From: an uncultured Chloroflexia bacterium
Lineage (GTDB): Bacteria; Chloroflexota; Limnocylindria; Limnocylindrales; CSP1-4
Direction: 5' to 3'
DNA length: 64,000 nt
Assembly: GCA_963748625.1 (NCBI GenBank)
Contig: CAVVJT010000004.1
Span: 256,001-320,000, forward strand
Positions within the stretch are counted from its first letter, which is position 1, and each line of letters opens with the position of its first letter. The position numbers and the translations under genes are program-made. The notes beneath the pieces were generated by a model. That model had not been told where the DNA came from, did no database searches, and worked only from the letters and a program-made list of their open reading frames with translations. Shown in pieces: positions 23,983-40,665 of this stretch.

Positions 23983-24131
23983 TCGTAGAAGCGGGTCGTC
24001 TCAGCGCGTGCGCGGAACACGATGCGTCCGGGGCCTCGCAGGCTCCTACTGTCCCGATCACGGTTCGCCCGCGGGTTGCGGACGGCCCCACGGGACGTCC
24101 TCGGCCGCGTCCTCGCCGCCCCGTGGGCGGA

Positions 24132-24264: not shown

Positions 24265-24341
24265 ACCTGGGGCGCCGCCGGGCGCGGCAGGGGCGCCACC
24301 GGGGCGGCGGGGTATCCGCCAGGCATTGGCGGGATGAGGCG

Positions 24342-25539
24342 CTAGGGCGGGTCGTCGGGCTGGGCTCGACCGTCGGCGTCGGGCCGGGTGTGCCGCTGCC
24401 GCCGGTGAGATCGCCGCTGGGGCTTGCGCTCGCCTGCGGGACGAGGACGGTCACGATCCGGCTACGCCGCAGGACACTGCCGTTGCCCCGCAGGGCGAGC
24501 ACCTGGACCTTGACCTCCACGACGCCTGCCGGCACGCGATAGCGCAGCGGGCGCTCGGGTGGGGCGGTGAACTCGCCGAGGATGCGCGGATCCGGGGTAG
24601 ACGGGATCGGGCGCCGGTCCAGTCCGCGAGACGGTCACGATCAGGAGTACGTCCTCGCGCGCCGGGTCTCCGTCCAGGTGACGGCGATACGCGGACCGGT
24701 GATGAGTCTGGCCCGTAGGCGGGGGCGCAGAATCGGCGGCGTAGGTGTCGGGGTGGCGGTGGGACTCGCGGTGGGCGTGGCCGTCGGGTCTGGACGGGGC
24801 GTCGGGTCTGGACGGGGCGTCGGGGGGGGCGTCGGCTCCATGGTGGCAGCCGTCGTCGACGTGGGGGCAGGCGTGCGGCCTGGCGCGAGCGTGGTCGTCG
24901 CCGTCGGGGCCGGTGGCGGCGATGGAGACCTCTCGTCGGCGGTGGTCGTGGGCTTCGGCGTCCGAAGCGATCCCGTGCCGCCGCCAGGACTCGTGGTCCG
25001 GTCGGGCAGGGACTCCGTCACCACACCCTCAGGCGAGTGCTCGACCACCACGCGGTCCTCCCCGACCGTGGCGATGTCGCCCGGGTCCGAGGAAGGTCTC
25101 ACCGATCCGCGCGGAACCTCCCTCCCCCACCCGCACGACAGCGCCGGGGGGCAGCAGCAGTCCGTCGGGGTCCTCGAGGACTTCGCCCCCAGGAAGGATC
25201 ACCTCCACGTGGACGGGTGCGACCAGGGCCGAGGCAGGCACTGGTGTCAGTTCGGGAGTGGGCCGGAGCGGGACCTGCGACCACGGCCAGGGCCAGCAGG
25301 GCCAGGGCGGCTCCAGCGCCTGCAGCCCACCAGCCCACGGCTGGGCGGCGGCGTGAAGGTGCGGATGTGGGTCTGGGAGCAAGCGCGGGGGCGGGGGCGC
25401 CTCCCGGAACGTCGGCCGCGGGAAGGCTTCCAGCGAGCGCGCGGAGACGCGTCTCCAGCCCGTCGGCAAACGCGGGGTCAACCAGCGGTGCCTGGCGGCG
25501 GCCGGCATCCTCGAGCGTGCGGCGGAGGTCGTCGTTCAC
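24342..25539 (-). CDS. Putative anti-sigma factor with TM helix, PT-rich linker and FN3-like C-terminal domain (several frameshifts; end approximate)
   Basis: GTGA overlap with the ECF stop; DPAFADGLETRLR N-terminus, TM segment, (TP)n linker, IAVTW...VQVLALRGNGSVL. Confidence 0.6.
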
Positions 25540-26135
25540 GATCCCTCCTCCGAACCCATCGTCTTGCGCAGCGCCCGCGTCGCCCGGAACACGACAACGG
25601 CCATCGTCGCCTTCGACGTGCCGAGGGCCGCCGCCGCCTCGTCGGGCGTCAGGCCGGCAAGGTAGCGCAACGCGAGCGCCTGCTGGTAGCGGGGGCTCAG
25701 ACGATCCATCGCGGCCAGCATCCCGGCGATGGCATCGCGGTCGCCCACCTCGTCGGCCGGGTCTCGCGGCGCCACGGCGGCCAGGCGGACCGCGGCGCCC
25801 GCGGCACGCGGCGAGGCATCACGACCCGATCGGCGGTAGTGATCGATGAGCTCGTTGGACACGATCCGGAACAGCCACGGGCCGAAGCCTCCCGGCTGCC
25901 ACGTGAAGGCATGGAGGTTGCGCAGGGCGCGCTCGAAGGCCGCCGAGGTGATGTCCTCGGCGACCTCGACGACGCCGGTCCGGCGGTACGCGAACGCGTG
26001 GACCCGGGGCAGGTAGCGGCGGTAGAGCTCCGCGAAGGCCGTCGGATCGACCTTCGCCTGCTCCACCAGCATCCGCTCGTCGCGATCCGTGTCCGCGCGT
26101 CCGTCCACCTGCACCAGTGTGCCGGTATCGGGCAC
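25536..26135 (-). CDS. ECF RNA polymerase sigma factor
   Basis: AFAELYRRY, AEDITSAAF, WLFRIVSN and region 4 LRYLAGLTPDEAAAALG. Confidence 0.9.
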   Translation of the reverse strand: MPDTGTLVQVDGRADTDRDERMLVEQAKVDPTAFAELYRRYLPRVHAFAYRRTGVVEVAEDITSAAFERALRNLHAFTWQPGGFGPWLFRIVSNELIDHYRRSGRDASPRAAGAAVRLAAVAPRDPADEVGDRDAIAGMLAAMDRLSPRYQQALALRYLAGLTPDEAAAALGTSKATMAVVVFRATRALRKTMGSEEGS

Positions 26136-26146
26136 GCCGGGCGCGG

Positions 26147-26884
26147 CTACTGCGCGGCGGCCGCCGCTTGGGCCGGGACGATCACGACGTCCGGCCCGCC
26201 GATCCCGACGACGCGTCCATCTGGGGCCAGGGCGACCACCGCATACCGGACGGACTGGCCGGCACTGAGGCTCTTGTCCCAGTAGGCTCGGACCCCGTTG
26301 AGCCGCGTGCGGTAGACCGCCTCACGGGCACCGCCATCGACCGAGCGGAAGAGCACGTAGCGCACGGCAGTCGGGCGGGTGGACGCGGCCCAGCGGCACT
26401 TCGCGCCGCTGGCATCACCGTCGATCACGTAGGCGCAGTTGAAGCCGAGTCTCTCGGGGGCGCGCATGAAGCGCACGGTCGCACGATCGCTGCTGCCCAG
26501 CCGGCTGCCATCGGTACCGATCGCGACCACCCGGTAGTGGTACGCGTGGCCCGGGGTGATGGTCCGATCGACGAACCGCAGGTCCTGGTCGGGCGTGACA
26601 CGGGCGATCCACTGGCGGGGCCTGCCGTCAACGGCGCGCCAGATGCGGTAGGCACGCACGTCGGCACCCGAGAACGCGGTCCAGCGGCACACGACGTACG
26701 GCTTGGCCTCGCTCATGACGGCGAGGTTGAGCGCACAGGACAGGTCGATGGCGGGCGTCGCCTCCGCGGCAGGCGTGAGCGAGGCGCTCGTGGCGGGCGC
26801 GCTTCCCGCCAGGGCGACAGTGGGCAGCAGGAGCGCCGCCATCAGGACGCCGCCGAGCAGCGAGACGAGGTTCGAACGTCGCAT
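26147..26884 (-). CDS. Secreted protein with two FN3-like domains
   Basis: Signal peptide (VALA); two repeats of C...CRW...Y.(I/L)(W/F)R.VDG...D....G....Y.VVA...DG; GGAGG SD. Confidence 0.75.
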   Translation of the reverse strand: MRRSNLVSLLGGVLMAALLLPTVALAGSAPATSASLTPAAEATPAIDLSCALNLAVMSEAKPYVVCRWTAFSGADVRAYRIWRAVDGRPRQWIARVTPDQDLRFVDRTITPGHAYHYRVVAIGTDGSRLGSSDRATVRFMRAPERLGFNCAYVIDGDASGAKCRWAASTRPTAVRYVLFRSVDGGAREAVYRTRLNGVRAYWDKSLSAGQSVRYAVVALAPDGRVVGIGGPDVVIVPAQAAAAAQ

Positions 26885-26923
26885 CGAGTTCCCTCCCGGG
26901 GTGTGCGGAATGTGGCACCCATG

Positions 26924-26951
26924 ACAACGAGGACCGCGCGCGTCGATTACA
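26924..26951 (-). promoter_or_regulatory. ECF-type promoter TGTAAT-N16-CGTTGT
   Basis: ECF-like -35 and CGT -10 upstream of the first gene of the cassette. Confidence 0.5.
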
Positions 26952-27117
26952 CCCGCGGCACCACGAAGGACCGGCCCGCGCACGACAGGTACTAGCCCGG
27001 TCTACTGGCGGCGCCGGGACCTTCGGGCCAGAACGGCGCGTGCTGGCACCACCCAGACTCCGTACCGAACGCGCCGGACATGGCGCTCAGGGGACATCAT
27101 CTGGAGGTCATCGCACA

Positions 27118-27603
27118 GTGCGCAGTCAGTTCAGCGGCCGCAAGCGGACTTCGGCCGCGCTCGGCGCCATCCTTGCCCTCGCCGTCGCGGGCGGCGCGCT
27201 CGCCTACTGGACCATCGGCGGCGGCGGCACGGGCTCGGCCACCGCGGGGAACGTCAACCCTGTGACCGTGACCCAGACGTCGACGGTTACCGGCATGTAT
27301 CCGGGCAGGACGCCGCAGCTGCTCGCCGGCGACATCACCAACCCGAACCCCGGCAAGGTGTTCGTGAGCTCGGTCACGGCCCTCGTTGAGCCCTTCTCCT
27401 CGACCGCCGTCGATGCCGGCAAGCCGGCATGCACGGAGGCGGATTTCGTGATCGGTGGTTCGGCCCCCGTCGGTGTCGAGATGGACCCCGGGGTCAACGT
27501 GGATGCGTGGTCGGGCCTGACGGTCGCCCTCACCGACGCGGCGACGAACCAGGACAACTGCAAGGGCGTCTCGATCCAGATCAACTACACGGCGAACCCG
27601 TAA
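27118..27603 (+). CDS. Secreted TasA/CalY-like protein with SipW-type signal peptide (putative major fibre subunit)
   Basis: GGALA/YWT processing motif, MYPG...ITNPN and C-terminal NQDNCKG; GGAGG before GTG 27118. Confidence 0.7.
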   Translation: MRSQFSGRKRTSAALGAILALAVAGGALAYWTIGGGGTGSATAGNVNPVTVTQTSTVTGMYPGRTPQLLAGDITNPNPGKVFVSSVTALVEPFSSTAVDAGKPACTEADFVIGGSAPVGVEMDPGVNVDAWSGLTVALTDAATNQDNCKGVSIQINYTANP

Positions 27604-27615
27604 CCAGGGCCGGCG

Positions 27616-27651
27616 GCCGGCGGGCGGGCGACCTGATCACCCGCCCCCGGC
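27616..27651 (+). promoter_or_regulatory. Intercistronic GC-rich hairpin after the first fibre gene
   Basis: GCCGG-C-GGGCGGG...CCCGCCC-CCGGC stem without a U-tract. Confidence 0.4.
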
Positions 27652-27683
27652 ACTCCGCGTCCTGAGCAGGATCGAAGCGGACG

Positions 27684-28253
27684 GTGCCGACGGTGAACAC
27701 ACCCGAACAGCCGGGCGCCGACGCCGGCGCCGCTGGGGCGACCGCCCTCGGGCGGCGACGTCTCCTCCAGCTCGCCGCGATCCTGCTGCTGGTCCTCCTG
27801 CTCGAGCTGGCGGGCCTGCTCCTCAGTGCACCGGACCAGGGTCAGCCTGCCGTCTCGGCCGCGTCGTACGGCCACACCGCCACCACGGGTGGCGACTTCA
27901 TCATCTCCGGCGAGATCGCGCCGCTCCCGGACTGTTCGGGCGTCGCGACCCTCGTTCCAGGCGTCGACCGGTGTCTCGTGTACACCGTCCGCAACCCGGG
28001 ACCCGCACCGATCGCCGTGACCTCGATCTCGATCTCGAAGGTCGGCGCTCCGGACGTGTGCCCCGTGAGCGTCCTCGATCTCGAGCGGACGACGTTCACG
28101 GGCACGCTCATGGTCGCCGCAGGTGGCACCGCGACGGTGTCCTCCGGGCGGATTGCCCTGCGTGACACGGGCGAGAACCAGGACGCCTGCAAGGGTGCCG
28201 AGTTCACCTTCACCTTCACCGGCACTGCCCGCCGTGGAGCGGGACCGACGTGA
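27684..28253 (+). CDS. Paralogous membrane-anchored or secreted TasA-like subunit
   Basis: N-terminal TM; LVPG...VRNPG and NQDACKG shared with the upstream protein. Confidence 0.65.
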   Translation: MPTVNTPEQPGADAGAAGATALGRRRLLQLAAILLLVLLLELAGLLLSAPDQGQPAVSAASYGHTATTGGDFIISGEIAPLPDCSGVATLVPGVDRCLVYTVRNPGPAPIAVTSISISKVGAPDVCPVSVLDLERTTFTGTLMVAAGGTATVSSGRIALRDTGENQDACKGAEFTFTFTGTARRGAGPT

Positions 28254-31200
28254 CCGGGAAGCTCCGTTTCGCCCGGATGCCGGTCGCCGTGGCGGTTGCG
28301 CTGAGCCTCGTGCTTGCCACCGCTGCCGTCACGCTCGCCTACTGGGCCGTCGGCGGGTTCGGATCCGCGTCGGCCTCGACGCTCGTCCTTGATCCCCCGA
28401 CTGCGGTCACCGCCACGTTCCCGAACCAGGCGTCGCGGACGGTCCGCGTGACGTGGACGGGACATGCCGCTCCCGGTGGCGGCAACCCAACCGGCTACTA
28501 CGTGCAGCGACTCGCCGGCGCGACGCCGAGCCCTGCATGCGGGTCGTCGCCCACCTCGCTCCTCTCGGGCGCGGCCGCCACCTGTGACGACCCGGGCGTG
28601 GCCTCCGGTACCTACACGTACGTGGTGACGGCAGTCTTCCGGACCTGGACGGCAGCGAGCACGCCCAGCGCAGCCGTGACCGTGCCGGTCCCCGCGCTCG
28701 CGTCGTTCTCGGTGGTCCCGTCCACCCTGGCCCCGACGGCGGGCTCGGGCATCACGCTCGCCGTGACCGCGATCGACCAGTACGGGGCCACGATGACGTC
28801 GTACGCTGGCGTCCAGTGCGTGACGCTGGGCGGCGCGCACGACGCACCTGGCGGCGCCGGCCCGACCTATCCGGCCGCGGGGAGCTGCGGCAGCGGAAGC
28901 AGCGTGACCTTCACGTCCGGCGCAGCGACCGTGCCTGTCACCCTCGTCGCGGCTGAGACCACGACGATCTCCGTGGTCGACAACGCCACGGCGAAGTCCG
29001 GCACGACCGCAAGCATCGCGGTTGGCCCCGGCGCCGCGAGCAGGCTCGCGTTCACGGTCAGCCCGTCGACCCCCACGGCCGCGGGCAGCGCGTTCGCGAC
29101 CCAGCCCCGCGTGACCGTGCAGGACGCGTACGGCAACACCGTGACCGGCGACACGAGCGCGGTCACCCTGGCCGTGACCGGCGGCGGGGCGCTGGTCAGC
29201 GGCTGCAGCGCGAACCCGGTCGCGGCCGTGGCCGGTGTGGCCACCTTCGCCGGCTGCCGGGTCACGACCGCGGGCACCTTCACCCTGGCCGCGACCGACG
29301 GCGCCCTCACCGGGGCGACCAGCGCGGGCTTCACGATCACCGCGGGCGCCGCGAGCAGGCTCGCGTTCACGGTCAGCCCGTCGACCCCCACGGCCGCGGG
29401 CAGCGCGTTCGCGACCCAGCCCCGCGTGACCGTGCAGGACGCGTACGGCAACACCGTGACCGGCGACACGAGCGCGGTCACCCTGGCCGTGACCGGCGGC
29501 GGGGCGCTGGTCAGCGGCTGCAGCGCGAACCCGGTCGCGGCCGTGGCCGGTGTGGCCACCTTCGCCGGCTGCCGGGTCACGACCGCGGGCACCTTCACCC
29601 TGGCCGCGACCGACGGCGCCCTCACCGGGGCGACCAGCGCGGGCTTCACGATCACCGCGGGCGCCGCGAGCAGGCTCGCGTTCACGGTCAGCCCGTCGAC
29701 CCCCACGGCCGCGGGCAGCGCGTTCGCGACCCAGCCCCGCGTGACCGTGCAGGACGCGTACGGCAACACCGTGACCGGCGACACGAGCGCGGTCACCCTG
29801 GCCGTGACCGGCGGCGGGGCGCTGGTCAGCGGCTGCAGCGCGAACCCGGTCGCGGCCGTGGCCGGTGTGGCCACCTTCGCCGGCTGCCGGGTCACGACCG
29901 CGGGCACCTTCACCCTGGCCGCGACCGACGGCGCCCTCACCGGGGCGACCAGCGCGGGCTTCACGATCACCGCGGGCGCCGCGAGCAGGCTCGCGTTCAC
30001 GGTCAGCCCGTCGACCCCCACGGCCGCGGGCAGCGCGTTCGCGACCCAGCCCCGCGTGACCGTGCAGGACGCGTACGGCAACACCGTGACCGGCGACACG
30101 AGCGCGGTCACCCTGGCCGTGACCGGCGGCGGGGCGCTGGTCAGCGGCTGCAGCGCGAACCCGGTCGCGGCCGTGGCCGGTGTGGCCACCTTCGCCGGCT
30201 GCCGGGTCACGACCGCGGGCACCTTCACCCTGGCCGCGACCGACGGCGCCCTCACCGGGGCGACCAGCGCGGGCTTCACGATCACCGCGGGCGCCGCGAC
30301 GGTCCTCGCCGTATCGTCGGGCGCCGGCCAGTCCGCGGATGTCGGCACCGCCTTCGGGAGCCCGCTCGTCGCGCTGGTCACGGACGGCTTGGGCAACCCG
30401 GTCTCCGGCGTCACTGTCACGTTCACGGCGCCCGGGTCGGGGGCGACCGGAGTGTTCCCCGGCCCCTCGTCCACCTCGACCGCGGTCTCCAACGCAGGCG
30501 GTCTGGCGTCGTCGTCCACCTTGACGGCGAACACGGTCGCGGGTGCCTGGTCGGTGTCGGCAAGTGCGAGCGGGACGAACACGACCGCGTTCGGGCTCAG
30601 CACCAGCCCCGGCGCCGCGAGCAGGCTCGCGTTCACGGTCAGCCCGTCGACCCCCACGGCCGCGGGCAGCGCGTTCGCGACCCAGCCCCGCGTGACCGTG
30701 CAGGACGCGTACGGCAACACCGTGACCGGCGACACGAGCGCGGTCACCCTGGCCGTGACCGGCGGCGGGGCGCTGGTCAGCGGCTGCAGCGCGAACCCGG
30801 TCGCGGCCGTGGCCGGTGTGGCCACCTTCGCCGGCTGCCGGGTCACGACCGCGGGCACCTTCACCCTGGCCGCGACCGACGGCGCCCTCACCGGGGCGAC
30901 CAGCGCGGGCTTCACGATCACCGCGGGCGCCGCGAGCAGGCTCGCGTTCACGGTCAGCCCGTCGACCCCCACGGCCGCGGGCAGCGCGTTCGCGACCCAG
31001 CCCCGCGTGACCGTGCAGGACGCGTACGGCAACACCGTGACCGGCGACACGAGCGCGGTCACCCTGGCCGTGACCGGCGGCGGGGCGCTGGTCAGCGGCT
31101 GCAGCGCGAACCCGGTCGCGGCCGTGGCCGGTGTGGCCACCTTCGCCGGCTGCCGGGTCACGACCGCGGGCACCTTCACCCTGGCCGCGACCGACGGCGC

Positions 31201-32053
31201 CCTCACCGGGGCGACCAGCGCGGGCTTCACGATCACCGCGGGCGCCGCGAGCAGGCTCGCGTTCACGGTCAGCCCGACGGGCTCCGTGCCAGGCGTGCCC
31301 TTCCCCGTCCAGCCGAAGGTCGCGATCCGGGACGCGTATGGCAACACGGTGACAACGGCGACCAACCCGGTCACCCTGGCCGTGACCGGCGGCGGAACGA
31401 CGGTCACCTGCACCGCGAACACGGTCGCGGCCGTCGCCGGGGTGGCGTCGTTTGCCGGATGCAGGATCAACGTCGTGGGCACCGGCTACACGCTCCGGGC
31501 GACATCCGGGGGCCTCACCGCCGGGACGAGCGCCGCATTCAACATCACCACGGCCCTCGCGCCTACCGGCATCGCGCTGGCGAACAAGCCGGGCGGCACC
31601 CGGGACCAGATCGAGCCCGGCGACCAGATGATCATCAGCTTTGCCGGCACGCTGAAGGCGAGCACCCTGTGCTCGACCTGGCCCAGCGACACGACGGCGT
31701 ACTCGGCGAGCGACGGCACCCTGACGCTGGTCGGCCAGGGCGGACCAGCCGGCGACGACGAGATCCTGTTGAGCACCAGCACGTCCTGCGGCGGTGCCCT
31801 CAACTTCGGCTACGTCGACCTTGAATCGACGGCCGTGGTCGGCGGCACGGGCTCCTACACGTGGAATGCAACGATCGCCTGGGACCCTTCCACCGACACG
31901 TTGACCGTCACCGTGGGTGCGCTGACCTCCGGCGCTCCTCCCGTCAACACCAGCGCCCGCATCAATCGGACCTACCACCCGAGCGCGACCCTCACCGACC
32001 CGCTGGGCATCCCGATCAGCGGCACCGCCACGAACCGCAGCCGCTTCTTCTAG
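28250..32053 (+). CDS. Large adhesin-like protein (1267 aa) with SipW-type signal, FN3-like domain and Ig-like repeats
   Basis: VTLA/YWA motif; 105-aa repeats (QPRVTVQDAYGNTV); one Big-1-like domain (VTDGLGNPVSGVTVTF). Confidence 0.85.
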   Translation: MTGKLRFARMPVAVAVALSLVLATAAVTLAYWAVGGFGSASASTLVLDPPTAVTATFPNQASRTVRVTWTGHAAPGGGNPTGYYVQRLAGATPSPACGSSPTSLLSGAAATCDDPGVASGTYTYVVTAVFRTWTAASTPSAAVTVPVPALASFSVVPSTLAPTAGSGITLAVTAIDQYGATMTSYAGVQCVTLGGAHDAPGGAGPTYPAAGSCGSGSSVTFTSGAATVPVTLVAAETTTISVVDNATAKSGTTASIAVGPGAASRLAFTVSPSTPTAAGSAFATQPRVTVQDAYGNTVTGDTSAVTLAVTGGGALVSGCSANPVAAVAGVATFAGCRVTTAGTFTLAATDGALTGATSAGFTITAGAASRLAFTVSPSTPTAAGSAFATQPRVTVQDAYGNTVTGDTSAVTLAVTGGGALVSGCSANPVAAVAGVATFAGCRVTTAGTFTLAATDGALTGATSAGFTITAGAASRLAFTVSPSTPTAAGSAFATQPRVTVQDAYGNTVTGDTSAVTLAVTGGGALVSGCSANPVAAVAGVATFAGCRVTTAGTFTLAATDGALTGATSAGFTITAGAASRLAFTVSPSTPTAAGSAFATQPRVTVQDAYGNTVTGDTSAVTLAVTGGGALVSGCSANPVAAVAGVATFAGCRVTTAGTFTLAATDGALTGATSAGFTITAGAATVLAVSSGAGQSADVGTAFGSPLVALVTDGLGNPVSGVTVTFTAPGSGATGVFPGPSSTSTAVSNAGGLASSSTLTANTVAGAWSVSASASGTNTTAFGLSTSPGAASRLAFTVSPSTPTAAGSAFATQPRVTVQDAYGNTVTGDTSAVTLAVTGGGALVSGCSANPVAAVAGVATFAGCRVTTAGTFTLAATDGALTGATSAGFTITAGAASRLAFTVSPSTPTAAGSAFATQPRVTVQDAYGNTVTGDTSAVTLAVTGGGALVSGCSANPVAAVAGVATFAGCRVTTAGTFTLAATDGALTGATSAGFTITAGAASRLAFTVSPTGSVPGVPFPVQPKVAIRDAYGNTVTTATNPVTLAVTGGGTTVTCTANTVAAVAGVASFAGCRINVVGTGYTLRATSGGLTAGTSAAFNITTALAPTGIALANKPGGTRDQIEPGDQMIISFAGTLKASTLCSTWPSDTTAYSASDGTLTLVGQGGPAGDDEILLSTSTSCGGALNFGYVDLESTAVVGGTGSYTWNATIAWDPSTDTLTVTVGALTSGAPPVNTSARINRTYHPSATLTDPLGIPISGTATNRSRFF
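29030..31276 (+). repeat. Six identical 315-bp intragenic repeats (4 + 2)
   Basis: Units start at 29030, 29345, 29660, 29975 and 30611, 30926; a diverged seventh unit follows from 31241. Confidence 0.95.
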
Positions 32054-32074
32054 CCAGGTGCCGCAGGACGACGG

Positions 32075-33139
32075 CTACCCTTCGGGACTGTCGAGGTCCC
32101 GGGCGAACGCGGGCAGCGCGTCCGGGGCGCTGGGCGCTACGTCCGGGCGCGGCCTCGATCGGGCGGGCATCGTCCGCCACGCACGCTCGTCGAACCCCGA
32201 CGCGATCGCCTCCTCGCGCGTCATCACCGCATAGCGCGCGGCCACCGCGAGCGCGTCGAGGGCCGCACGCGCCTCGGCCGGTGTCAGCGATGCAAGTGAC
32301 GAGGCATTCGCAAGGCCCACGCGCTCCAGACCCCGTCCGTTGATGGACGCCGCGTACTGGGCGGCCCAGACGAGCTGGGGCGACTGATCACCGAGCGGCC
32401 GGCCCGGCGCAGCCGCCAGGGCGGCGCAGACGACCCCGCGCGAGCCAGGGGCCTCCCGCACGAGGTACCAGTTGTCGGGCCCTTCGATCAGGTCCACCAG
32501 GACAGACGCATACGGAAGACCGAACACGGATGCACCGCCGAGGCCATGCGCGTCGCCGCCCGGGACAGCCAGCATCAGGTGGAGGTCCGCAGGCTCGCGC
32601 AGCAGGCGGCGGTGCGCTCGGATCCATCCATCCCGTGCCTGGGCCGCGCCGATCCCGGTCGCGGCCGGCTCATCGATGATCACGACAGCGCAACCGGCGG
32701 CCCGCAGCGCTGCCAGCTCGCCGGCAAGGGATGCTGCAAAGGCCAGGGCCTGCCCGTTGAGGACGGAGAGGTCCCCGCAGGCGCCCCCATCGCGCAGCGC
32801 GAGCGTGTACGGGCCCGGTACCACTGCGGCGACGGTCGCGTCGGTGAGCGCCGCAGTCGCATGGAACGTGCGCACCAGCATGCCGTCGGGACCGGTGTCT
32901 CCTGCGGCGAGCGCGCCAAGCAGTGCCGCAATGGGGTCGGCCCACGAGACCTGGCCGTCGGAGATGAGATCGAGACCAGCCTCGACCTGGGCGGTGACCG
33001 CCTCGGCCCGGAGCTCCGCCCGCGCGGCGGTCACCGCCTCGGGCGTGACCCGACCGGCCGCCGCCTCGGCCTCGAGCGCGGTCACATCGACCCCGGATGA
33101 CGTGACGCGGGGCCAGGCCCCGCGAAGCATGGCGAACAC
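32075..33139 (-). CDS. MetE-like (cobalamin-independent methionine synthase fold) single-barrel protein lacking Zn ligands
   Basis: GAWPR, AQVEAGLDLISDGQ, PGPYTLA and IIDEP; HxC and CG motifs are absent. Confidence 0.7.
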   Translation of the reverse strand: MFAMLRGAWPRVTSSGVDVTALEAEAAAGRVTPEAVTAARAELRAEAVTAQVEAGLDLISDGQVSWADPIAALLGALAAGDTGPDGMLVRTFHATAALTDATVAAVVPGPYTLALRDGGACGDLSVLNGQALAFAASLAGELAALRAAGCAVVIIDEPAATGIGAAQARDGWIRAHRRLLREPADLHLMLAVPGGDAHGLGGASVFGLPYASVLVDLIEGPDNWYLVREAPGSRGVVCAALAAAPGRPLGDQSPQLVWAAQYAASINGRGLERVGLANASSLASLTPAEARAALDALAVAARYAVMTREEAIASGFDERAWRTMPARSRPRPDVAPSAPDALPAFARDLDSPEG

Positions 33140-33326
33140 CTTCGGATCGTACCCTCCCATCCGCCGCGCCATGGGCTGCGAAGAGGGGGCGATGGACATG
33201 CTGCTCACTGGCCCGCTCACCACCCACCCGGCCGTCGCGTTCCTCCGTTCCTTCGCGCCCGTGCCCACTCGACCCGCCCTTGGGTATGATCGACCTGCCC
33301 GGCGGACGGGGGAAGTGGAGGATCGG

Positions 33327-33938
33327 TTGCGGCAGCCTGATGACGTGCAGGCGCAGCGGCGCGCGGAGGACGCGGCGCTGCTGGCGCGTATCGTCGACAA
33401 GGATGAGCGGGCCGTGGAGGCGCTGTATGCGCGCTACTCCGGGCCGCTCTACTCGCTTGCCTACCAGGTCACCCACGCCGAGCGCTTCGCCCAGGACGTC
33501 GTCCAGGAGGTCTTCGTCGCCCTCTGGCGCGATGCGAGTCGCTTCGACCCCGCCCGCGGCGCCGTCGCGCCCTGGCTCTTCTCGCTGGCGCGGCACAAGG
33601 CGATCGACCTCGTCCGTCGTGAGGCCAACGTCCGCAAGCACACCGCGGACGTGGACCTCGAGCTGCGTGAGGCCGACGATGACGTGGATCACGAGACATG
33701 GCTCCGGATCCGCCGCGAGCGCGTCCATGTGGCGATCGAGGAGTTGACGCCGGTCCAGCGCGAAGCGCTGGAGCTCGCCTTCTTCCAGGGCCTCACCCAC
33801 GTCGAGGTGTCGGAGCGCCTCGGTATCCCCCTCGGCACGGCCAAGACCCGGATCCGGAGCGCACTGCTCCGTCTCCGCGACGTCCTCGGTGACTCGGTCT
33901 CGGAGCTGCCTGCGGGTGCGGGAGCCCTCGAGCCATGA
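33327..33938 (+). CDS. ECF sigma factor (SigK-like)
   Basis: DVVQEVF, FDPARG, WLFSLARHKAID and LAFFQGLTHVEV...PLGTAKTRIR; start approximate. Confidence 0.9.
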   Translation: MRQPDDVQAQRRAEDAALLARIVDKDERAVEALYARYSGPLYSLAYQVTHAERFAQDVVQEVFVALWRDASRFDPARGAVAPWLFSLARHKAIDLVRREANVRKHTADVDLELREADDDVDHETWLRIRRERVHVAIEELTPVQREALELAFFQGLTHVEVSERLGIPLGTAKTRIRSALLRLRDVLGDSVSELPAGAGALEP

Positions 33939-34807
33939 TCCACGCCGAGGCCGAAGCACTCCTCGCCGCCGGTGCGGTCCTTGGCGACCTCGACCCTGAC
34001 GAGCAGGCCCGCTACGACACCCATCGCGCCGCCTGCGACGCGTGCCGGTCCCTTGAGGTCGAGCTCGACCACGTCCTCGCCGACCTGGCGCTCGTGGTCC
34101 CCGAACGCGTGCCGCCTCCGGATCTCCTCGACGGCATCCGGGCGGCGATCGCGGCCGACGGAGCACGCGCCGGCGGACCGGTGTCGAGCCCCGTCGACAT
34201 GTCAGCCGTGTCCCCGGGCCGCACGCCCGACGTGGCGCCTGTGGCTCCTGACGTGGAGCCCGTGACAGGCAAGGTCATCGCCTTCGATCCTGCACGCTCG
34301 CGCCGCTCACAACGCCTGCTCGTCTCCTCTCTCGGCCTCGCGGCCGTGCTGGGCATCGTGGCCGTCGGCCTCGGTGTCAGCAACCGCGGCCTGCAGCAGG
34401 ATCTCGCTGCGCAGACCGCACAGGTGACACGCCTGGAGGCAACGGTGGCGAGTGCCGGCAGCGCGATGACCGTCGCCCTGAATCCGTCACACGTCACGGT
34501 CGCCCTGCACGCCGAGCCGCTCGCGCCCGAGGCGGCAGCAGCGGTGATGTACCTGCCCGGATCGACGTCGTCGTGGATCGTTGTCGAGAACCTTCCGGCC
34601 ACACCCGCGGGCCACGGCTACCAGCTCTGGTATGCCGACGCGGCGGGGGTGCACGGCCTGCAGACGGTCGCCTTCGATGGTGAGGGCGCGTTCATGGCCC
34701 CGATCGACGCCGACCTGGCCGACGCGGCAGCCGTCATGATCACCCTCGAGCCGGACGGCGGCGCCACCGGAGAGCCCGGGCCGCAGGTGGTCTTCGGCGA
34801 GCTGTAG
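33935..34807 (+). CDS. RskA-like anti-sigma factor with zinc finger
   Basis: H...HRAACDAC, TM helix, YQLW and ITLEPDGG...PG. Confidence 0.88.
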   Translation: MIHAEAEALLAAGAVLGDLDPDEQARYDTHRAACDACRSLEVELDHVLADLALVVPERVPPPDLLDGIRAAIAADGARAGGPVSSPVDMSAVSPGRTPDVAPVAPDVEPVTGKVIAFDPARSRRSQRLLVSSLGLAAVLGIVAVGLGVSNRGLQQDLAAQTAQVTRLEATVASAGSAMTVALNPSHVTVALHAEPLAPEAAAAVMYLPGSTSSWIVVENLPATPAGHGYQLWYADAAGVHGLQTVAFDGEGAFMAPIDADLADAAAVMITLEPDGGATGEPGPQVVFGEL

Positions 34808-34810
34808 CGG

Positions 34811-36019
34811 CTACCCCGCCCAGTACGCAGCGCCCACGAACCAGAGCGCGACCATCGCCAGCCCGAGCAGTCCCACGCCCGCGAGGCGGATGCCGAACGT
34901 CCCAGCCGTGCCGAACACCGGCACGGTCGTACCCGGTGTGGTACCGGGGCGGCGCCACATCGAGCGTATGGTGGGAACCATCGTGGGCGCGAACAGCACG
35001 CCCAGCCAGAGGCCGGTGACGAGGCCGCCGGCATGCGCCCAGTTGTCGATGCCGGGCATCACGAACCCGTAGATCATGGTGATGGCCGCGGCGCCCACCA
35101 GCTGGCCGATGAACGCGCGGGACGCCCGGTCGATCATGGGCCGGTGGACCATCTCGGCCGCGATCAGCACCCCGAACAGGCCCATGATCGCCCCCGACGC
35201 GCCCACGCTCACCGCGGAGCTCGTGCCCAGCGCAAATGACAGGAGCGAGCCGCCAGCCGCCGCCGCGAGGTACAGGAGCAGGAAGTTGCGCCGCCCGTAG
35301 AGCTGCTCCACGAACGGGCCGGCCAGCCACAGCGCGTACATGTTGAGGCCCAGGTGGAGCAGGCCGCCGTGGACAAGAGTCACGGTCCACAGCCGCCAGA
35401 TCTCCCCGACCGCGACGAGCGGCTTGATGAGCGCGAGGAACTCGAACAGCAGCTCGCCGACCTGGGGCGCGAAGTCCACCGCCATCGAGGTGATCACCGT
35501 GACGCCGATCACGCCGAGCGCGAACGAGAAGCCCCGGTCGCCCCGGGCGCGCGCGAAGTAGCGGCCCGACGCTCCCTGGTCACCCAGCTCCTTCGACAGC
35601 CAGCCCATCCGGTTGGCGATCTCCGGCTTGTCCTCGCTCGGCGCGCGCCGGTCGGCCTCCTTGTAGGCGTCGAGCGCGCCCCGGAGGTTCCCCGCGCGCA
35701 CCCGTGCGGCGGCGACGTTGCGCCACGCGGCGTACGTGTAGTCGTTCTCGGCAAGACGCGTCGCGGCCTCCCACTCGGCGAGCGCCTGGGCGTCGTCGTC
35801 GAGCCGGTGGAACGCCTCGCCCAGGCCGATCAGGGCGGCCGACGTGAGCGCAGGGTCGTCGATCCCCACGATCCGCTGGTAGAGGCGGGCCGCATCCACG
35901 AAGTCCGCCGAGGCCATCAGCTCCGCGGCATGGGCCAGGGCGGCCTGCGCCTCTGCGCGACTCAGCGGCCCCTGGCGACCCATCGCCCCACGGTAGTCGA
36001 ACTCGGATGCGTCACTCAC
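34811..36019 (-). CDS. TPR-rhomboid intramembrane serine protease fusion
   Basis: N-terminal TPR-like helices; WR, HGGLLHLGLN, GASG and AHAGG. Confidence 0.88.
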   Translation of the reverse strand: MSDASEFDYRGAMGRQGPLSRAEAQAALAHAAELMASADFVDAARLYQRIVGIDDPALTSAALIGLGEAFHRLDDDAQALAEWEAATRLAENDYTYAAWRNVAAARVRAGNLRGALDAYKEADRRAPSEDKPEIANRMGWLSKELGDQGASGRYFARARGDRGFSFALGVIGVTVITSMAVDFAPQVGELLFEFLALIKPLVAVGEIWRLWTVTLVHGGLLHLGLNMYALWLAGPFVEQLYGRRNFLLLYLAAAAGGSLLSFALGTSSAVSVGASGAIMGLFGVLIAAEMVHRPMIDRASRAFIGQLVGAAAITMIYGFVMPGIDNWAHAGGLVTGLWLGVLFAPTMVPTIRSMWRRPGTTPGTTVPVFGTAGTFGIRLAGVGLLGLAMVALWFVGAAYWAG

Positions 36020-36045
36020 GCGAGGCAGGGTACCCGAGAAGCGTT

Positions 36046-36102
36046 GCCTAGGCCGTCAGGCAAGGCCCAGGCCGTCGGGCAAGGCCCGGGCCGTCGGGGC
36101 GT
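36046..36102. repeat. Three imperfect 19-bp tandem repeats in a divergent promoter region
   Basis: GCCTAGGCCGTCAGGCAAG / GCCCAGGCCGTCGGGCAAG / GCCCGGGCCGTCGGGGCGT. Confidence 0.6.
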
Positions 36103-36148
36103 CCGGCCGTCCTCCGCCGTCCGACGACCCGGGCGCTAGACTCGGCGA

Positions 36149-36880
36149 ATGTGCGGACGATTCACCCAGCAGCGCCCGACCTCTGACATCGCGGCCATCT
36201 TCGGCGCCGAGGACCTTGCCGACGATCCCGGCGGCCACTTCAATGTCGCCCCCACCGATCCGGCGGCCGTCGTGGTCCAGCGGGAGGATCGCCGGGCGGT
36301 CGTGCGCTACCAGTGGGGGTTCCAGCCGTCCTGGGCCACCGCCGGCAAGGACGGCCGCCCTCCCCAGCGTCCCTTCAACGCGCGAGCGGAGTCCCTCTCC
36401 ACGAGCGGGCTCTTCCGCGACGCCTTCCGCAAGCGGCGCTGCCTCGTCCCCGTCGACGGCTTCTACGAGTGGCGACGCGAGGGCAAGGCCAGGATGCCGC
36501 TCCACATCCATGACGCCGGCCGCAACATCCTCGCGCTGGCTGGCCTCTGGACCGGGCGCCAGGACGAGGTGACGGGCGAGTGGATCCGCAGCTTCACCAT
36601 CGTCACCACCCGCCCCAACGATTTCATGGCCTCGATCCACGACCGGATGCCGGTGGTGGTCCCACCCGAGTCGTGGGAGCTGTGGCTCGACCCCACCCCA
36701 AAGGACGCCGGCGAGCTGCGTGCGCTCCTGGAGCCAGGCGAGCAGATCGGCCTTGCCGCGTACGCGGTGGGCACGCTCGTCAACAACGCCCGCAACGACG
36801 GGCCCGAGTTGATCCTGCCCGCGGACTCCACCCCCGTGGCGGATGACCGGCCGGAGGACGCCAGCCTCCGCCTCCTCTGA
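36149..36880 (+). CDS. SOS response-associated peptidase (SRAP/YedK)
   Basis: MCGRF, NARAE, GFYEW and HDRMP. Confidence 0.93.
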   Translation: MCGRFTQQRPTSDIAAIFGAEDLADDPGGHFNVAPTDPAAVVVQREDRRAVVRYQWGFQPSWATAGKDGRPPQRPFNARAESLSTSGLFRDAFRKRRCLVPVDGFYEWRREGKARMPLHIHDAGRNILALAGLWTGRQDEVTGEWIRSFTIVTTRPNDFMASIHDRMPVVVPPESWELWLDPTPKDAGELRALLEPGEQIGLAAYAVGTLVNNARNDGPELILPADSTPVADDRPEDASLRLL

Positions 36881-36915
36881 CGCCCGATGGATCTGCGTCA
36901 CCTGCCTGGCGACGC

Positions 36916-37572
36916 TCAGAGGACCCTCCGCCCGGGGAGCATGCCCTCCGCCATCTCGGAGGCGGCAACGACGTGGCGCCGGTTGAGCAGAGCGAAGGGG
37001 TACCGGCTGATGATCCGCCGGTCGGCGAGTGACCTTGTGCGGACATCTGTGAGGGGGACGAATACGGGATCGGTGGACTCGACCAACGCCGCCAGGTCCC
37101 CGCCGTCCGGCCCATACAGCTCGCCGGTCAGCGTGTGGCCCGGCGTCACGTAGATCATGGCGTGGGTGATCTTGGGGATCCGGAACTCCCTGGCATCCGC
37201 GACGGCGGCGGCCGCCTCCAACTGGCCGAAGATCGTCACCTCCTCGGGGCTGACCCAGATCCGGGCGGCCGTGACCTTCGTCGGCTCGCCGTTGCGCCGC
37301 AGGATCGTCACGTCGTGAAGCGCGAGCATGCCGACGTGGTGGTTCATGAAGTCCGAGAGACGGCTGAACCGGCCGATGTCGAACGTGCCCGTCACCCGCA
37401 TATGCTGGCCCACGAGCTCCACCCGGACCGGGGTTGCCAGGGTCGGGACATGCGGGGCTGCGGCGACAACCTGACCGTCATCCACCAGGTCCTCGAGGTG
37501 GATGGAGACGTCGCCATCCGGGCGCTGGTCGGGGACGACGGCGAAGTCGCGCGCGGCCTCAGATTCGATCAT
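36916..37572 (-). CDS. Hypothetical protein with two DUF6812-like repeats
   Basis: Duplicated pattern G...RLSDFMN...LALHDV and G...LAALVE...FVPLTDV...LNRRHV. Confidence 0.55.
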   Translation of the reverse strand: MIESEAARDFAVVPDQRPDGDVSIHLEDLVDDGQVVAAAPHVPTLATPVRVELVGQHMRVTGTFDIGRFSRLSDFMNHHVGMLALHDVTILRRNGEPTKVTAARIWVSPEEVTIFGQLEAAAAVADAREFRIPKITHAMIYVTPGHTLTGELYGPDGGDLAALVESTDPVFVPLTDVRTRSLADRRIISRYPFALLNRRHVVAASEMAEGMLPGRRVL

Positions 37573-37737
37573 CGTGGGCACCTGGCTGGCATGGGGCTCT
37601 GACCCGGCCTGAGCCGGTCCCACGATGGTCGGGAGCGCTGGCTTACGAGCGCCATAACGCGGAGTTCCCAGCAGTCCCAGGTGGCCTTGCGCACGTGAAC
37701 CGACGCCCCACCGGATGCGGGGCTGTGCCAACCCGGT

Positions 37738-38388
37738 TCAGCCGTCGCCCGCGACAGGCTCCCAGCCGGCAGCACCCGTGGCGGCGCGCAGGGCATCCTC
37801 GGGCGCGAGCCCGCGATCCAGGCCTGCCGCGATCACGCCCACGAGCGCCCCGAACGCGCCGTCATCGTCTCCCGGCGACCCCAGGACGAGCGCGGAGGCC
37901 GGCACAGACGGCTGGTGCGCACCGTGGGCCAGGACCACGACCAGGCTCGCCCCCGCGAACGCAGCCGCGTCCACGGTGGCCGGGATCACATCCACGGGCA
38001 CCTCGTCTGTGACGACGAGGACGTCGAAGGCGGTGAGGTAGCTCAGGCCGAGGGCGACGTCCGCAGGCTCCAGGAGCGGACCCTCGCCGGCGGCCGAGCT
38101 GGGCGCCGTCGAGGCAGGATCGGCGAACGGATCCTCGTCGTCAGGCTCGGCGGGCAGCTGGCTTCGCCGGGTCGGGCGAACGGGGTCACGAAGGACGGCG
38201 GCGTGACCCACCGACGACCTGGCAAGCGCGATGAGCAGGGCGTTGCCTGCAGCGTCGTCGCCGATCCGGCCGACCAGCTCCACGCGCGCTCCGGCACCGA
38301 CTGCTGCAAGCGCGATCTCACAAGCGCGCCCTGCGGGACCCGACGGTTCCGACGAACGCCAGGCAGGCATCCCGACAACGGTGATCAT
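37738..38388 (-). CDS. PfkB/ribokinase-like short protein
   Basis: LVGRIGDDAAGNALL motif; the C-terminal GAGD motif is degenerate. Confidence 0.55.
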   Translation of the reverse strand: MITVVGMPAWRSSEPSGPAGRACEIALAAVGAGARVELVGRIGDDAAGNALLIALARSSVGHAAVLRDPVRPTRRSQLPAEPDDEDPFADPASTAPSSAAGEGPLLEPADVALGLSYLTAFDVLVVTDEVPVDVIPATVDAAAFAGASLVVVLAHGAHQPSVPASALVLGSPGDDDGAFGALVGVIAAGLDRGLAPEDALRAATGAAGWEPVAGDG

Positions 38389-38435
38389 GCCGACAGACTA
38401 CCCCTCACCCGGCATCGGGCGCGGGACCAACGCCG

Positions 38436-39230
38436 TCAGCGCGTGACTGCGTCGTTGTCCGGCGTAGGCGTCGCTTCGGGGTCAGGCGTGTCGGAGGGCC
38501 TCGGCGTCCGCGTCGGCTGGGGCGTGTCCGTCGCGTGCTCGTCGTCCTCGTCCGGCGTGGCCGTGGGCTTGGGGGTTGGCTTGGGGGTGGGCTTCCTCGT
38601 CGGCGAGGCAGTCTTGTTGTCACCCGAGGCGGAGCCGCCGCTGTCGTCGGTCTTGTCCTCGTCGTCCGGCGTCTCAGTCGGCTCGGGCGTCTCGCCCGGC
38701 TCGGCGGACTCGGACGGGGACGGGCTCGGGGACCACTCGGCGGACTCGGACGGCGAGGGGGACGGGCTCGGGGGCGCAGTCGCCTCGGGTGCCTCGCTCG
38801 GATCATCGGTCGCGGTGGGAACCTCGACCGGCGGGGTCGGGCCGCCATCGACAAGGCCGAGGGCGGCTGCAGCCCCGTACGTGACCCCCCCGCCAAGCGC
38901 GACTACCACCAGGACCACGGCGAGCGCTTGGACCCGGACCACGGCCGGGAACCCGCCGCTGAAGGTGACCCGGAAGGCATCGCGGATGGAGGCGAGGAGC
39001 GCGATCAGCGCGGCTGTGCGCAGCGCGTGCCCGGCGGCGCGCGCCGGCGCGGGCAGGGGCTCGGCGCCCACCGCAGCCATGACGCGGTCCGCGAAGCCCG
39101 GCGACGTGGCCACCGGGACGCGGCCGGCCACGGCCTCGAGCTCGCGTGCGAGACGGGCCTCGGCGGCCAGCTCGTCCGGCGTCATGCCCTCGGCACCGTC
39201 CAGCTCGTCAGGGCGGAACGGGCCGCTCAT
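38436..39230 (-). CDS. Putative anti-sigma factor with acidic P/T-rich extracellular tail
   Basis: ATGA overlap with the sigma stop; PGFADRVMAAV motif, TM helix and low-complexity tail. Confidence 0.7.
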   Translation of the reverse strand: MSGPFRPDELDGAEGMTPDELAAEARLARELEAVAGRVPVATSPGFADRVMAAVGAEPLPAPARAAGHALRTAALIALLASIRDAFRVTFSGGFPAVVRVQALAVVLVVVALGGGVTYGAAAALGLVDGGPTPPVEVPTATDDPSEAPEATAPPSPSPSPSESAEWSPSPSPSESAEPGETPEPTETPDDEDKTDDSGGSASGDNKTASPTRKPTPKPTPKPTATPDEDDEHATDTPQPTRTPRPSDTPDPEATPTPDNDAVTR

Positions 39231-39868
39231 TGCTCGGTCTCCTCGAGATTGCGCCGGAGGCGCGCGAGGCCGCGGTGCAGGTGGGTCTTCACGGTGCCGA
39301 GGGGACGGTCGGTCGCCTCGGCGATCTCGTTGAGCGAGCGCTCCGCGAAGAAGCGCAGCGCAACGACCTCGCGGTAGGGCTCATCCAGAGCGGCGACGGC
39401 TGCACGAAGCTGGGCGTCGCGCTCGGAGCGCAGGAACGAGTGGGCCGGATCGACCGCCTCGGTGGTCATCGTGGTCCGATAGCGCTCCTGGCCGGGCAGA
39501 TCTCCCTCGGCGGCAAGCGGGTCGAGCCAGGTGACCTGCTTGCGCTGCGAGGAGCGCCGGATCGCCAGACGGACGGCGATGCGAGTCAGCCACGCACCGA
39601 AGGCGCCGTCCGCGCGCCATGACCCCAGCGAGCGATACGCGATCACGAACGCCTCCTGGGACACATCCTCGGCCTCGGCACGATCGCCGAGGACTCGAGC
39701 ACACGCGGCGACGACCGATGGCGCTTCACGCTCCACGAGGAGGCGGAAGGCGTCTCGGTCGCCGGCGAGGACTGCATCCACGATCGTGCGGTCATCGGGT
39801 GTGGCCTCAGCGTCGCTGCGGACGCGCCTGGTGTCGATGGCTTGCGGTTCCTCCGTCCTGCGGGACAC
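39227..39868 (-). CDS. ECF sigma factor (SigW/RpoE-like)
   Basis: GDRDAFRLLV, AEDVSQEAF, WLTRIA and EIAE...PLGTVKTHLHRG; start approximate. Confidence 0.9.
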   Translation of the reverse strand: MSRRTEEPQAIDTRRVRSDAEATPDDRTIVDAVLAGDRDAFRLLVEREAPSVVAACARVLGDRAEAEDVSQEAFVIAYRSLGSWRADGAFGAWLTRIAVRLAIRRSSQRKQVTWLDPLAAEGDLPGQERYRTTMTTEAVDPAHSFLRSERDAQLRAAVAALDEPYREVVALRFFAERSLNEIAEATDRPLGTVKTHLHRGLARLRRNLEETEQ

Positions 39869-39953
39869 CGAGTATGCCCGGTGCGGGCTCCCGGTCGGTT
39901 CCCATCGCAGGACGGAGGTCATGCAGTCTGTCGGCGTTGGTGGCTGATCGCTG

Positions 39954-40577
39954 TCAGTTGCCCGGTGTGGGCTCGGACGTCGGCTCGGCGGTGGCGTCGT
40001 CGTCATCGTCGTGGTCGTCGTCATCGTCGTCGCCGCTGCCCGAGTGGTCGTCGGTCGGCTTCGCGGTGGCGTGGTCGTCATCGTCGTCGCGGTCACCGCC
40101 GTGGTCGTCGGTGGCGCCTGGTGAGGCGCTCGCGTCGTCGTCGTCCATGTCCTCGTCCGAGTCGTCGTCATCGTCGTCGCCGCTGCCCGAGTGCTCGTCG
40201 GTCGGCTTCGCGGTGGCGTCATCGTCCGAGGAAGCGTCGTCGCGGTCACCGCCGTGGTCGTCGGTGGCCTGCTCGGACTCCGGGGTGCCTGTGGGCTCCT
40301 CGGTGGCGTCGTCAGCCTCCGGGGACCCGGTCGGCTCCTCGGACTTGAGCTCGTCGGTCGCCTCGGGCGACCCGCTGGCCTCGGGGGACTCCGACTCGTC
40401 CTCGATCTCCATCGTGGCGTCGTCGGCCGGGTTCGTGGTGGAGGTCGACGCGGGGCTGTCATCGGTCGCGCGACCGCCGCTCACGAAGGTGCTGGTGGCG
40501 AACGTCGCACCGGCAACAAGGAAGACGGCGACAAGCGCAGTGCCGGCCGACCGGACCGTGGTGTGGGTGAGACGCAT
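39954..40577 (-). CDS. Secreted Asp/His-rich low-complexity protein (DDHGGD and HSGSG repeats)
   Basis: Signal peptide ending in ATFA; a unit of about 100 bp is duplicated at 40014-40115 and 40161-40267. Confidence 0.7.
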   Translation of the reverse strand: MRLTHTTVRSAGTALVAVFLVAGATFATSTFVSGGRATDDSPASTSTTNPADDATMEIEDESESPEASGSPEATDELKSEEPTGSPEADDATEEPTGTPESEQATDDHGGDRDDASSDDDATAKPTDEHSGSGDDDDDDSDEDMDDDDASASPGATDDHGGDRDDDDDHATAKPTDDHSGSGDDDDDDHDDDDDATAEPTSEPTPGN

Positions 40578-40637
40578 CCGTGAACCTGGCTCTCTGGGTG
40601 GTGTCGTGCGCGGCTCCCTCGGCCGCGTCACACCTCC

Positions 40638-40665
40638 TGAGGCAGTTGCGCGTGCAAAGGTTTCA
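40638..40665 (-). promoter_or_regulatory. ECF-type promoter TGAAAC-N16-GCCTCA
   Basis: TGAAAC -35 with a 16-nt spacer upstream of the first gene of the cassette. Confidence 0.45.

Follow-up and report, generated by a model that had tools for sequence, protein, structure and literature searches.

Does a membrane anti-sigma factor display, outside the cell, a likeness of the protein that its own operon exports? The question is raised by a 64,000-nucleotide stretch of DNA from an uncultured Chloroflexia bacterium (assembly GCA_963748625.1, contig CAVVJT010000004.1, positions 256,001 to 320,000; hereafter the window, in whose numbering all coordinates are given), in which two gene cassettes each place an extracytoplasmic function (ECF)-type promoter, a gene for an exported protein, an ECF sigma factor gene and a gene for a single-pass anti-sigma factor in that order. 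An earlier note on these letters had proposed that in both cassettes the anti-sigma factor carries a copy of its output, by which it would sense the same ligand, protease or polymer. The positions and gene order that it gave for the two cassettes are confirmed, on the minus strand, the order is conserved across relatives, and the peptide strings that it quoted are all present. We find that the best explanation of the locus is a pair of separate, vertically inherited, self-contained ECF sigma operons, each with its own conserved ECF-type promoter; our fuller account, to which we give somewhat better than even odds, is that cassette 1 resembles the RsgI systems of Firmicutes, with a fibronectin type 3 (FN3) sensor domain on the anti-sigma factor that is distantly related to the exported FN3 protein.

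The window (~72% G+C) lies on contig 4 of a metagenome-assembled genome of 10 contigs and 4.6 Mb (completeness 98.3%, contamination 7.7%), and homologues of the cassette proteins bear the source name "Candidatus Limnocylindrales bacterium", from which the host is probably a Limnocylindrales-type member of the Chloroflexota. Cassette 1 consists of the following features:

26923..26954, minus strand: ECF-type promoter (TGTAATCG, 15 nucleotides, CGTTGTC), predicted from conservation
26147..26884, minus strand: exported tandem-FN3 protein ("target 1"), an open reading frame (ORF) with a signal peptide and two FN3 domains
25536..26135, minus strand: ECF sigma factor 1 (Pfam Sigma70_r2 2e-17, r4_2 2.6e-10)
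24342..25539, minus strand: anti-sigma factor 1, from a three-frame reading and intact orthologues

Searches at the DNA level in 41 relatives and at the protein level in 151 family genomes (the latter with a more stringent initial filter, which makes its 7 of 151 a lower bound) place the cassette in 13 other genomes from three genera, with the same order on one strand in all 13. Eleven orthologous anti-sigma 1 proteins are intact, at 329–368 residues. All 12 loci compared share the promoter hexamer TGTAAT without change, with CGTT(G/C)T lying 15–16 nucleotides behind TGTAATC(G). Wider databases yield, at E ≤0.001, 83 proteins of the anti-sigma 1 family and 136 of the exported family, nearly all of them unnamed or "hypothetical", with some of the exported proteins labeled fibronectin type 3. 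The GTG start of anti-sigma 1 overlaps the stop codon of sigma 1 and, in cassette 2, the start of anti-sigma 2 overlaps the sigma 2 gene by 4 nucleotides, so that translational coupling is to be expected in both operons; consensus scans found no sigma-70 promoter and no terminator between the genes inside either cassette.

Both sigma factors are of the ECF kind: sigma 1 and sigma 2 match Pfam r2 and r4_2 only, with r3 absent at E ≤0.1, which places them among the ECF (group 4) sigma-70 factors, and both pass the cut-off of NCBIfam TIGR02937 (85.8 and 85.3 bits, respectively, cut-off 42.9). Each stands outside the named ECF subfamilies, the best NCBIfam subfamily being BldN for sigma 1 (99.5 bits versus a cut-off of 206.45) and SigW for sigma 2 (118.7 bits versus 209). 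The best PDB sequence match of sigma 1 is 6dxo_A (E 9.3e-22), possibly the BldN complex; the string "6dxo" does not occur in the text of PMC6101532.

The first gene of cassette 1 encodes a protein whose predicted structure is built from FN3 domains, as the earlier note had read its repeats. An AlphaFold2 (AF2) model of the orthologue from genome G006 has a predicted local distance difference test (pLDDT) value of 87.8, and Foldseek retrieves tandem FN3 pairs with it (best 6pok, E 1.1e-8; at least 460 matches at E ≤0.001), so that the modeled protein is assigned to the FN3 fold. Pfam fn3 scores 14 bits on the exported protein of the window (cut-off 25) and 27.8 bits on a homologue, P0121. Its two domains, D1 and D2, align at 99.6% in hhalign and are clear duplicates; Cys45, Cys64, Cys148, and Cys161 are invariant, giving one cysteine pair per FN3 domain. 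At one locus (L016, genome G125) the exported protein has three FN3 domains, not two.

Anti-sigma 1 is predicted to begin with two helices (a cytoplasmic part of ~40 residues) followed by one transmembrane helix, beyond which come a 60-residue juxtamembrane β domain, a Pro/Thr-rich spacer of ~85 residues and an FN3-like domain at the C-terminus. The AF2 model has a pLDDT of 78.2 overall and 94–98 in the C-terminal domain, which is predicted to adopt the FN3 fold. Searched against PDB sequences, the juxtamembrane domain gave nothing meaningful (E 1.4), and the sole PDB match of the full anti-sigma 1 profile at E ≤1e-3 (8zvk_A) falls within the Pro/Thr spacer. Pfam and NCBIfam hold no family for anti-sigma 1, anti-sigma 2 or the acidic exported protein of cassette 2; neither anti-sigma factor has a Pfam match to zf-HC2 or an HxxxCxxC motif, which sets both apart from the class I zinc-binding type. 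We call the third genes anti-sigma factors because of their position, the overlap of their starts with the sigma stop codons, a conserved N-terminal segment and a single transmembrane helix.

Comparison of profiles links the C-terminal domain of anti-sigma 1 (hereafter the sensor) to both domains of the exported protein. Profiles of 12–14 sequences gave hhalign values of 78.4% and 91.0% between sensor and exported domains, larger profiles (62 and 67 sequences) gave 89.8% at ~26% identity, and domain-cut profiles gave 88.0% for D1 and 95.2% for D2 (E 2.6e-8, 75 columns). These alignments span 75–78 columns and are always in register, running from the strand-B tryptophan to the F–G hairpin; the juxtamembrane and N-terminal parts of anti-sigma 1, taken as controls, reach at most 3.9%. 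The genome itself contains 14 other FN3 domains detectable by Pfam, all of which score ≤3.2% against the sensor profile, in contrast to 82.6% for D1 and 71.6% for D2 of the window. An hmmsearch with the sensor profile hidden Markov model over 40,836 six-frame ORFs (≥60 residues) of the genome returned the three pieces of its own gene first and then the neighboring exported protein (E 0.0014), the next match standing at E 0.022. We read the sensor as a diverged FN3 domain that, within its own genome, has its closest relative in its operon partner. The resemblance claimed by the earlier note thus holds at the level of predicted fold and remote profile kinship (hhalign 88–95%), the two levels at which it had asked for HHalign and AlphaFold/Foldseek comparison, and does not extend to significant pairwise similarity.

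A number of results weigh against any tighter relationship. Pairwise BLASTP of exported protein 1 against anti-sigma 1 falls short of significance (its best alignment, at E 0.005, is out of register), and the genome-wide match at E 0.0014 sums two weak domains (per-domain E 0.27 and 9.2). When the D1 and D2 profiles serve as templates, four further FN3 domains from this genome reach 48–95% and the sensor 15–28%; repeats of a canonical FN3 protein, P0251, score 42.9 against the sensor, close to the 47.1 of D2. Searched against 1.84 billion representative proteins, the sensor profile finds 448 matches at E ≤0.001, many of them giant proteins (all five that were scanned hold Pfam fn3), and among the best 150 there is no recognizable protein of the exported type, multi-FN3 giants outranking the exported family. 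The sensor is without the two cysteines conserved in each exported FN3 domain. Own sensor/exported pairs are no closer than foreign ones across 11 genomes (mean 45.5 versus 47.8, permutation p 0.88; locus L016 was left out, as was L006 for its stops), from which we conclude that no matching is kept between sensor and exported protein. A complex prediction for the exported FN3 pair with the sensor domain (score 0.01, mark 0.32) weighs on neither side. Finally, the third genes lack an anti-sigma match in Pfam or NCBIfam, so that their role is itself inferred. Taken as profiles, sensor and exported domains fit an old and remote shared origin and no maintained copy: what stands of the "copy of its output" is a domain predicted to be FN3 in both and the top match in the genome; against a copy speak the missing cysteines, the four other FN3 domains that lie closer to the exported protein than the sensor does, and the lack of an own-versus-foreign signal.

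These same results frame the alternative in which the FN3 likeness is coincidental, two genes with a common extracytoplasmic fold occupying one operon with neither a ligand in common nor any functional mirroring. The identity of only ~26%, the greater closeness of the exported domains to other FN3 domains, the world-wide retrieval of canonical FN3 repeat proteins by the sensor profile (with P0251 nearly equal to D2) and the missing own-pair signal all speak for coincidence; it is harder to square with the neighbor being the top non-self match among 40,836 ORFs, with values of 72–83% for the neighbor's domains where the genome's 14 others stay at or below 3.2%, and with a trio kept together in every one of the 13 other genomes. 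We regard coincidence as unlikely, if a contender to be taken seriously.

On the account that we favor, the two-helix cytoplasmic clamp of anti-sigma 1 would hold sigma 1 at the membrane, and the Pro/Thr-rich spacer, long enough to cross the wall, would carry the FN3 domain outward. There the distal domain may bind an outside polymer or surface that is also bound by the exported FN3 protein; engagement would lead to loss of anti-sigma 1, through proteolysis or by its being pulled apart, and the released sigma 1 would raise transcription of its own operon and hence of the exported protein.

The nearest described relative of such a design is the sigma-I/RsgI system of Clostridium (Acetivibrio) thermocellum. 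As described in PMC4711584, RsgI is likewise a membrane anti-sigma factor in which a cytoplasmic part binds the sigma factor, a further segment spans the wall and a binding module sits at the distal end; the ectodomains carry CBM3, PA14 or GH10 modules. The modules recur among the outputs: RsgI6 has a GH10 domain, as do the GH10 xylanases, and RsgI1, RsgI2, and RsgI4 have CBM3, as do CipA and Cel9V; sigma-I6, whose anti-sigma factor bears GH10, activates GH10 xylanase genes and cipA, which contains CBM3 (PMC4711584). The sigma-I operon is also autoregulated (PMC4711584), as cassette 1 may be. Differences are plain: the cassette sigmas are standard ECF factors (r2 and r4) and not sigma-I, RsgI_N was not detected in Pfam scans of the anti-sigma factors, which places them outside the sigma-I/RsgI family, the shared module of cassette 1 is FN3 and not a known carbohydrate-binding or glycoside hydrolase module, and the mirrored protein is here encoded within the sigma operon. 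The earlier note had known of no described general system of this design. RsgI provides the precedents (PMC4711584, PMC9732909), and the principle that a sensor mirrors its output is already in print for sigma-I; a literature search, with most subscription journals outside it, returned no description of an FN3 anti-sigma factor with an FN3 operon partner in ECF systems.

Two further systems touch single parts of cassette 1. The cytoplasmic part of anti-sigma 1 (~40 residues, two predicted helices) is reminiscent in its model of the class II clamp of CnrH/CnrY and NepR, as these are described in PMC6101532. It differs in having no sequence match to CnrY or NepR. CnrY is not known to have a large ectodomain. 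Streptomyces Sigma-BldN/RsbN is brought to mind by BldN being the best NCBIfam subfamily of sigma 1, and PMC6101532 describes RsbN as a single-pass anti-sigma factor with a large ectodomain and the BldN outputs as secreted surface proteins; sigma 1 differs in falling short of the BldN cut-off (99.5 bits versus 206), and RsbN in having a 117-residue three-helix class III domain (PMC6101532).

Cassette 2 repeats the gene order of cassette 1 with proteins of another character:

40636..40665, minus strand: ECF-type promoter (TGAAACCTT, ~16 nucleotides, CTCAGG), predicted from conservation
39954..40577, minus strand: exported or membrane-anchored acidic Asp/Glu/His-rich protein ("target 2"), an ORF with no folded domain detected
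39227..~39922, minus strand, start codon uncertain: ECF sigma factor 2 (Pfam r2 1.2e-15, r4_2 3.9e-13)
38436..39230, minus strand: anti-sigma factor 2, an ORF with orthologues

Of the 24 other genomes in the genus, 22 have a match to anti-sigma 2, which consists of a conserved N-terminal domain, a transmembrane segment and a Pro/Ser/Thr/Glu-rich disordered extracytoplasmic tail of ~135 residues. The acidic gene lies upstream in 11 of 14 cassette 2 loci (the window's own included; 10 of the 13 others), two of the three loci that miss it being cut by contig ends. Its orthologues keep an N-terminal hydrophobic segment and carry an acidic His/Gly low-complexity tail that varies even among close relatives.

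Is the likeness of the two tails in cassette 2 more than composition? Composition-corrected BLASTP of the exported protein against anti-sigma 2 aligns 19 residues at E 0.017. When 16 acidic Pro/Thr/Ser-rich segments (≥100 residues) of the genome are compared, the best non-self partner of the acidic tail is the anti-sigma 2 tail (140; next 103); seen from the anti-sigma 2 tail, eight other linkers score 137–206 versus 134 for the exported tail, which ranks ninth of 15. Own pairs exceed foreign ones in raw score (114.9 versus 107.0, permutation p 0.008) but scarcely so after shuffle normalization (z 3.5 versus 3.3; nine genomes, several of them close kin, with L021 and L027 left out for out-of-frame tails and the L033 anti-sigma tail miscut), and we take this difference as no clear signal. 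The motif DD[HNSG]GG was considered as a shared signature and rejected, being present in only 4 of 11 exported and 5 of 14 anti-sigma orthologues and occurring 60 times in 7.5 million six-frame ORF residues. The likeness of the tails is one of composition only, within the range of the genome's acidic or Pro/Thr-rich linkers, which is the outcome that the earlier note had itself named as refuting its case, and the mirroring that it saw here falls away; its own-versus-foreign comparison holds in the raw scores and not in the normalized ones. Cassette 2 is an ordinary ECF pair with disordered tails, and its lesson is that composition alone makes acidic or Pro/Thr-rich tails look alike.

According to PMC9732909, the disordered region of Bacillus subtilis RsgI is needed for signaling, is interchangeable with that of PBP1 and works in scrambled versions, so that composition and not residue order mattered for the RsgI/PBP1 regions. 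Cassette 2 is similar to the system outlined there in pairing an anti-sigma ectodomain that ends in disorder with a second envelope protein that has a disordered region, and by this analogy RsgI/PBP1 may serve as a model both for that cassette and for the Pro/Thr spacer in cassette 1. The differences are that no conserved juxtamembrane domain of ~140 residues was detected in cassette 2, and that its second protein is small, acidic and without an enzyme domain. An alternative for cassette 2 is a metal-related role of the Asp/His tail.

ECF promoters usually have an AAC/CGT layout, and the promoter boxes of both cassettes resemble it. That of cassette 2 contains GAAACCTT, invariant in 11 of 11 loci, followed downstream by CTCnGG. 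The strict form of this motif occurs at a single site in the assembly, at cassette 2, and the loose cassette 1 pattern GTAATC-N15-20-CGTT at two sites in the 4.6-Mb assembly, one of them at cassette 1; in this assembly-wide scan no further regulon member was evident for either promoter. Looser sites like that of cassette 2 (TGAAACCTTCGGGC...CCTC) lie at C7:1083673 (plus strand), upstream of a gene for a multi-pass membrane protein, and at C10:1233771 (minus strand), and these may be further targets of sigma 2 or a paralogue. The leader that separates promoter from start codon in cassette 2 contains a block CGGCnCCAGCGAGGnnGCCG (~40578–40635, minus strand) that is conserved in 11 loci; an RNA element in this leader is not claimed, as RNAalifold gave only a weak structure of −3.1 kcal/mol with one compensatory pair. 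Rfam at gathering thresholds found nothing across the whole window. The lone terminator-like match lies on the opposite strand, inside anti-sigma 2.

The lack of a convincing second genomic site for either motif, by which no separate regulon is seen, speaks for a different role for the first gene: an accessory sensor or co-regulator that would dock on the anti-sigma ectodomain and modulate anti-sigma stability, in place of an output. RseB acts on RseA, and CnrX on CnrY, in this way. Docking would be FN3-on-FN3 in cassette 1, and by way of a metal-loaded acidic His/Asp tail in cassette 2. The position of the first gene ahead of sigma in every locus and the abundance of Asp/His/Gly motifs in the tail of cassette 2 also agree with such a role, but no metal-binding domain family appeared in the Pfam and NCBIfam scans and the cassette 2 tails vary freely among close relatives, and we consider a co-regulator decidedly improbable.

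In the window, the anti-sigma 1 gene changes frame at least five times (near 25270, near 25078, and at ~24647, ~24587, and ~24350) and contains two in-frame TGA codons. We compared these breaks with contigs of public sediment metagenomes (runs X1 and X2, from two studies); no run shares more than 0.15 of the sampled words of the stretch, so that the compared reads stem from near relatives or from partial coverage, and no RNA run is listed for the stretch. An X2 contig of 151 bases covers 24557–24706 with one mismatch; base 24587 is missing from it, and an additional A follows 24647. The match of an X1 contig ends at 24586, and its unaligned letters equal the window from 24588 on, so that the same base is missing; its other end shows a single inserted A at 24349/24350, by which the TAG at 24344–24342 comes into frame. 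Applying the 24587 and 24647 changes by script yields "...VTWTETRRARTYLLIVTVSRTGPAPDPVYPGSRILGEF...", equal to the orthologue consensus. A fourth indel is hinted at by two records whose alignments end at 25075 and 25080. Both 24587 and 24647 adjoin GATC sites, and GATC sites attract long-read errors.

A neighboring gene is broken in the same manner. The MoxR-like AAA ATPase gene at 22743–23708 (minus strand) carries a frameshift that separates ...EWNYP from RQMLEIRLL... and is continuous in relatives, which supports the view that one-base indel errors are frequent in this assembly. Since the short-read contigs contradict the indels, the restored frame fits the consensus and the MoxR-like neighbor is also split, the breaks in anti-sigma 1 are most likely assembly errors, with the gene spanning 25539–24342, in agreement with the start coordinate that the earlier note gave for the cassette. 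The frame repair that the earlier note had asked for succeeds for two changes; the breaks near 25270 and near 25078 have no direct gap call from any independent contig, a further point on the debit side of our account. That anti-sigma 1 is instead a decaying pseudogene with biological frameshifts, leaving sigma 1 unrestrained, is highly unlikely: decay would suit a gene with five or more changes of frame and two in-frame TGA codons in 1.2 kb and with a repeat element abutting its 3′ end, but three of the indels are missing from near-identical short-read contigs of two runs, undoing two of them restores the consensus protein, the conserved MoxR-like neighbor is broken too, the assemblies of some relatives, such as G016 and G122, show similar breaks, and the third-position GC signal remains in the expected frames.

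The repeat directly behind the anti-sigma 1 stop (24100..24341) is a dispersed element of ~240 bases that matches no Rfam family. Further copies in the genome, at 82–98% identity, lie at C10:272518-272724 (98%), C3:42434, C7:209051, C4:239305, C10:1198528, and C4:184213.

For most ECF systems the signal sensed by the anti-sigma factor is not known, and a domain shared by sensor and product narrows the search to what that domain binds. Cassette 1 offers a compact, conserved and testable example from a poorly studied soil and sediment lineage, with two small soluble FN3 parts, and would extend the RsgI principle from the sigma-I of Firmicutes to ordinary ECF sigma factors. It is very doubtful that ECF operons opening with a free exported relative of the anti-sigma sensor domain form a general class of self-mirroring envelope sensors. 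If they did, exported and tethered FN3 domains would compete for or bridge the same wall or polymer site, sigma activity would report the occupancy of that site by the operon's own product, and cassette 2 would be the disordered-region version.

Further genes lie between the cassettes. One (28250–32053, plus strand) encodes a surface protein of 1267 residues, in which a hydrophobic segment at the N-terminus and one FN3-like domain are joined by at least eight Ig-like repeats of 105 residues that are nearly identical, with third-position G+C near 1.0. Ahead of it, apparently in the same operon, come the genes of two small secreted proteins (27040–27603 and 27684–28253, both plus strand). Beyond it lies a third ECF pair, with a sigma factor at ~33330–33938 (plus strand) and an anti-sigma factor at 33935–34807 (plus strand) that carries an HxxxCxxC motif (HRAACDAC) and whose C-terminal part looks RskA-like by eye.

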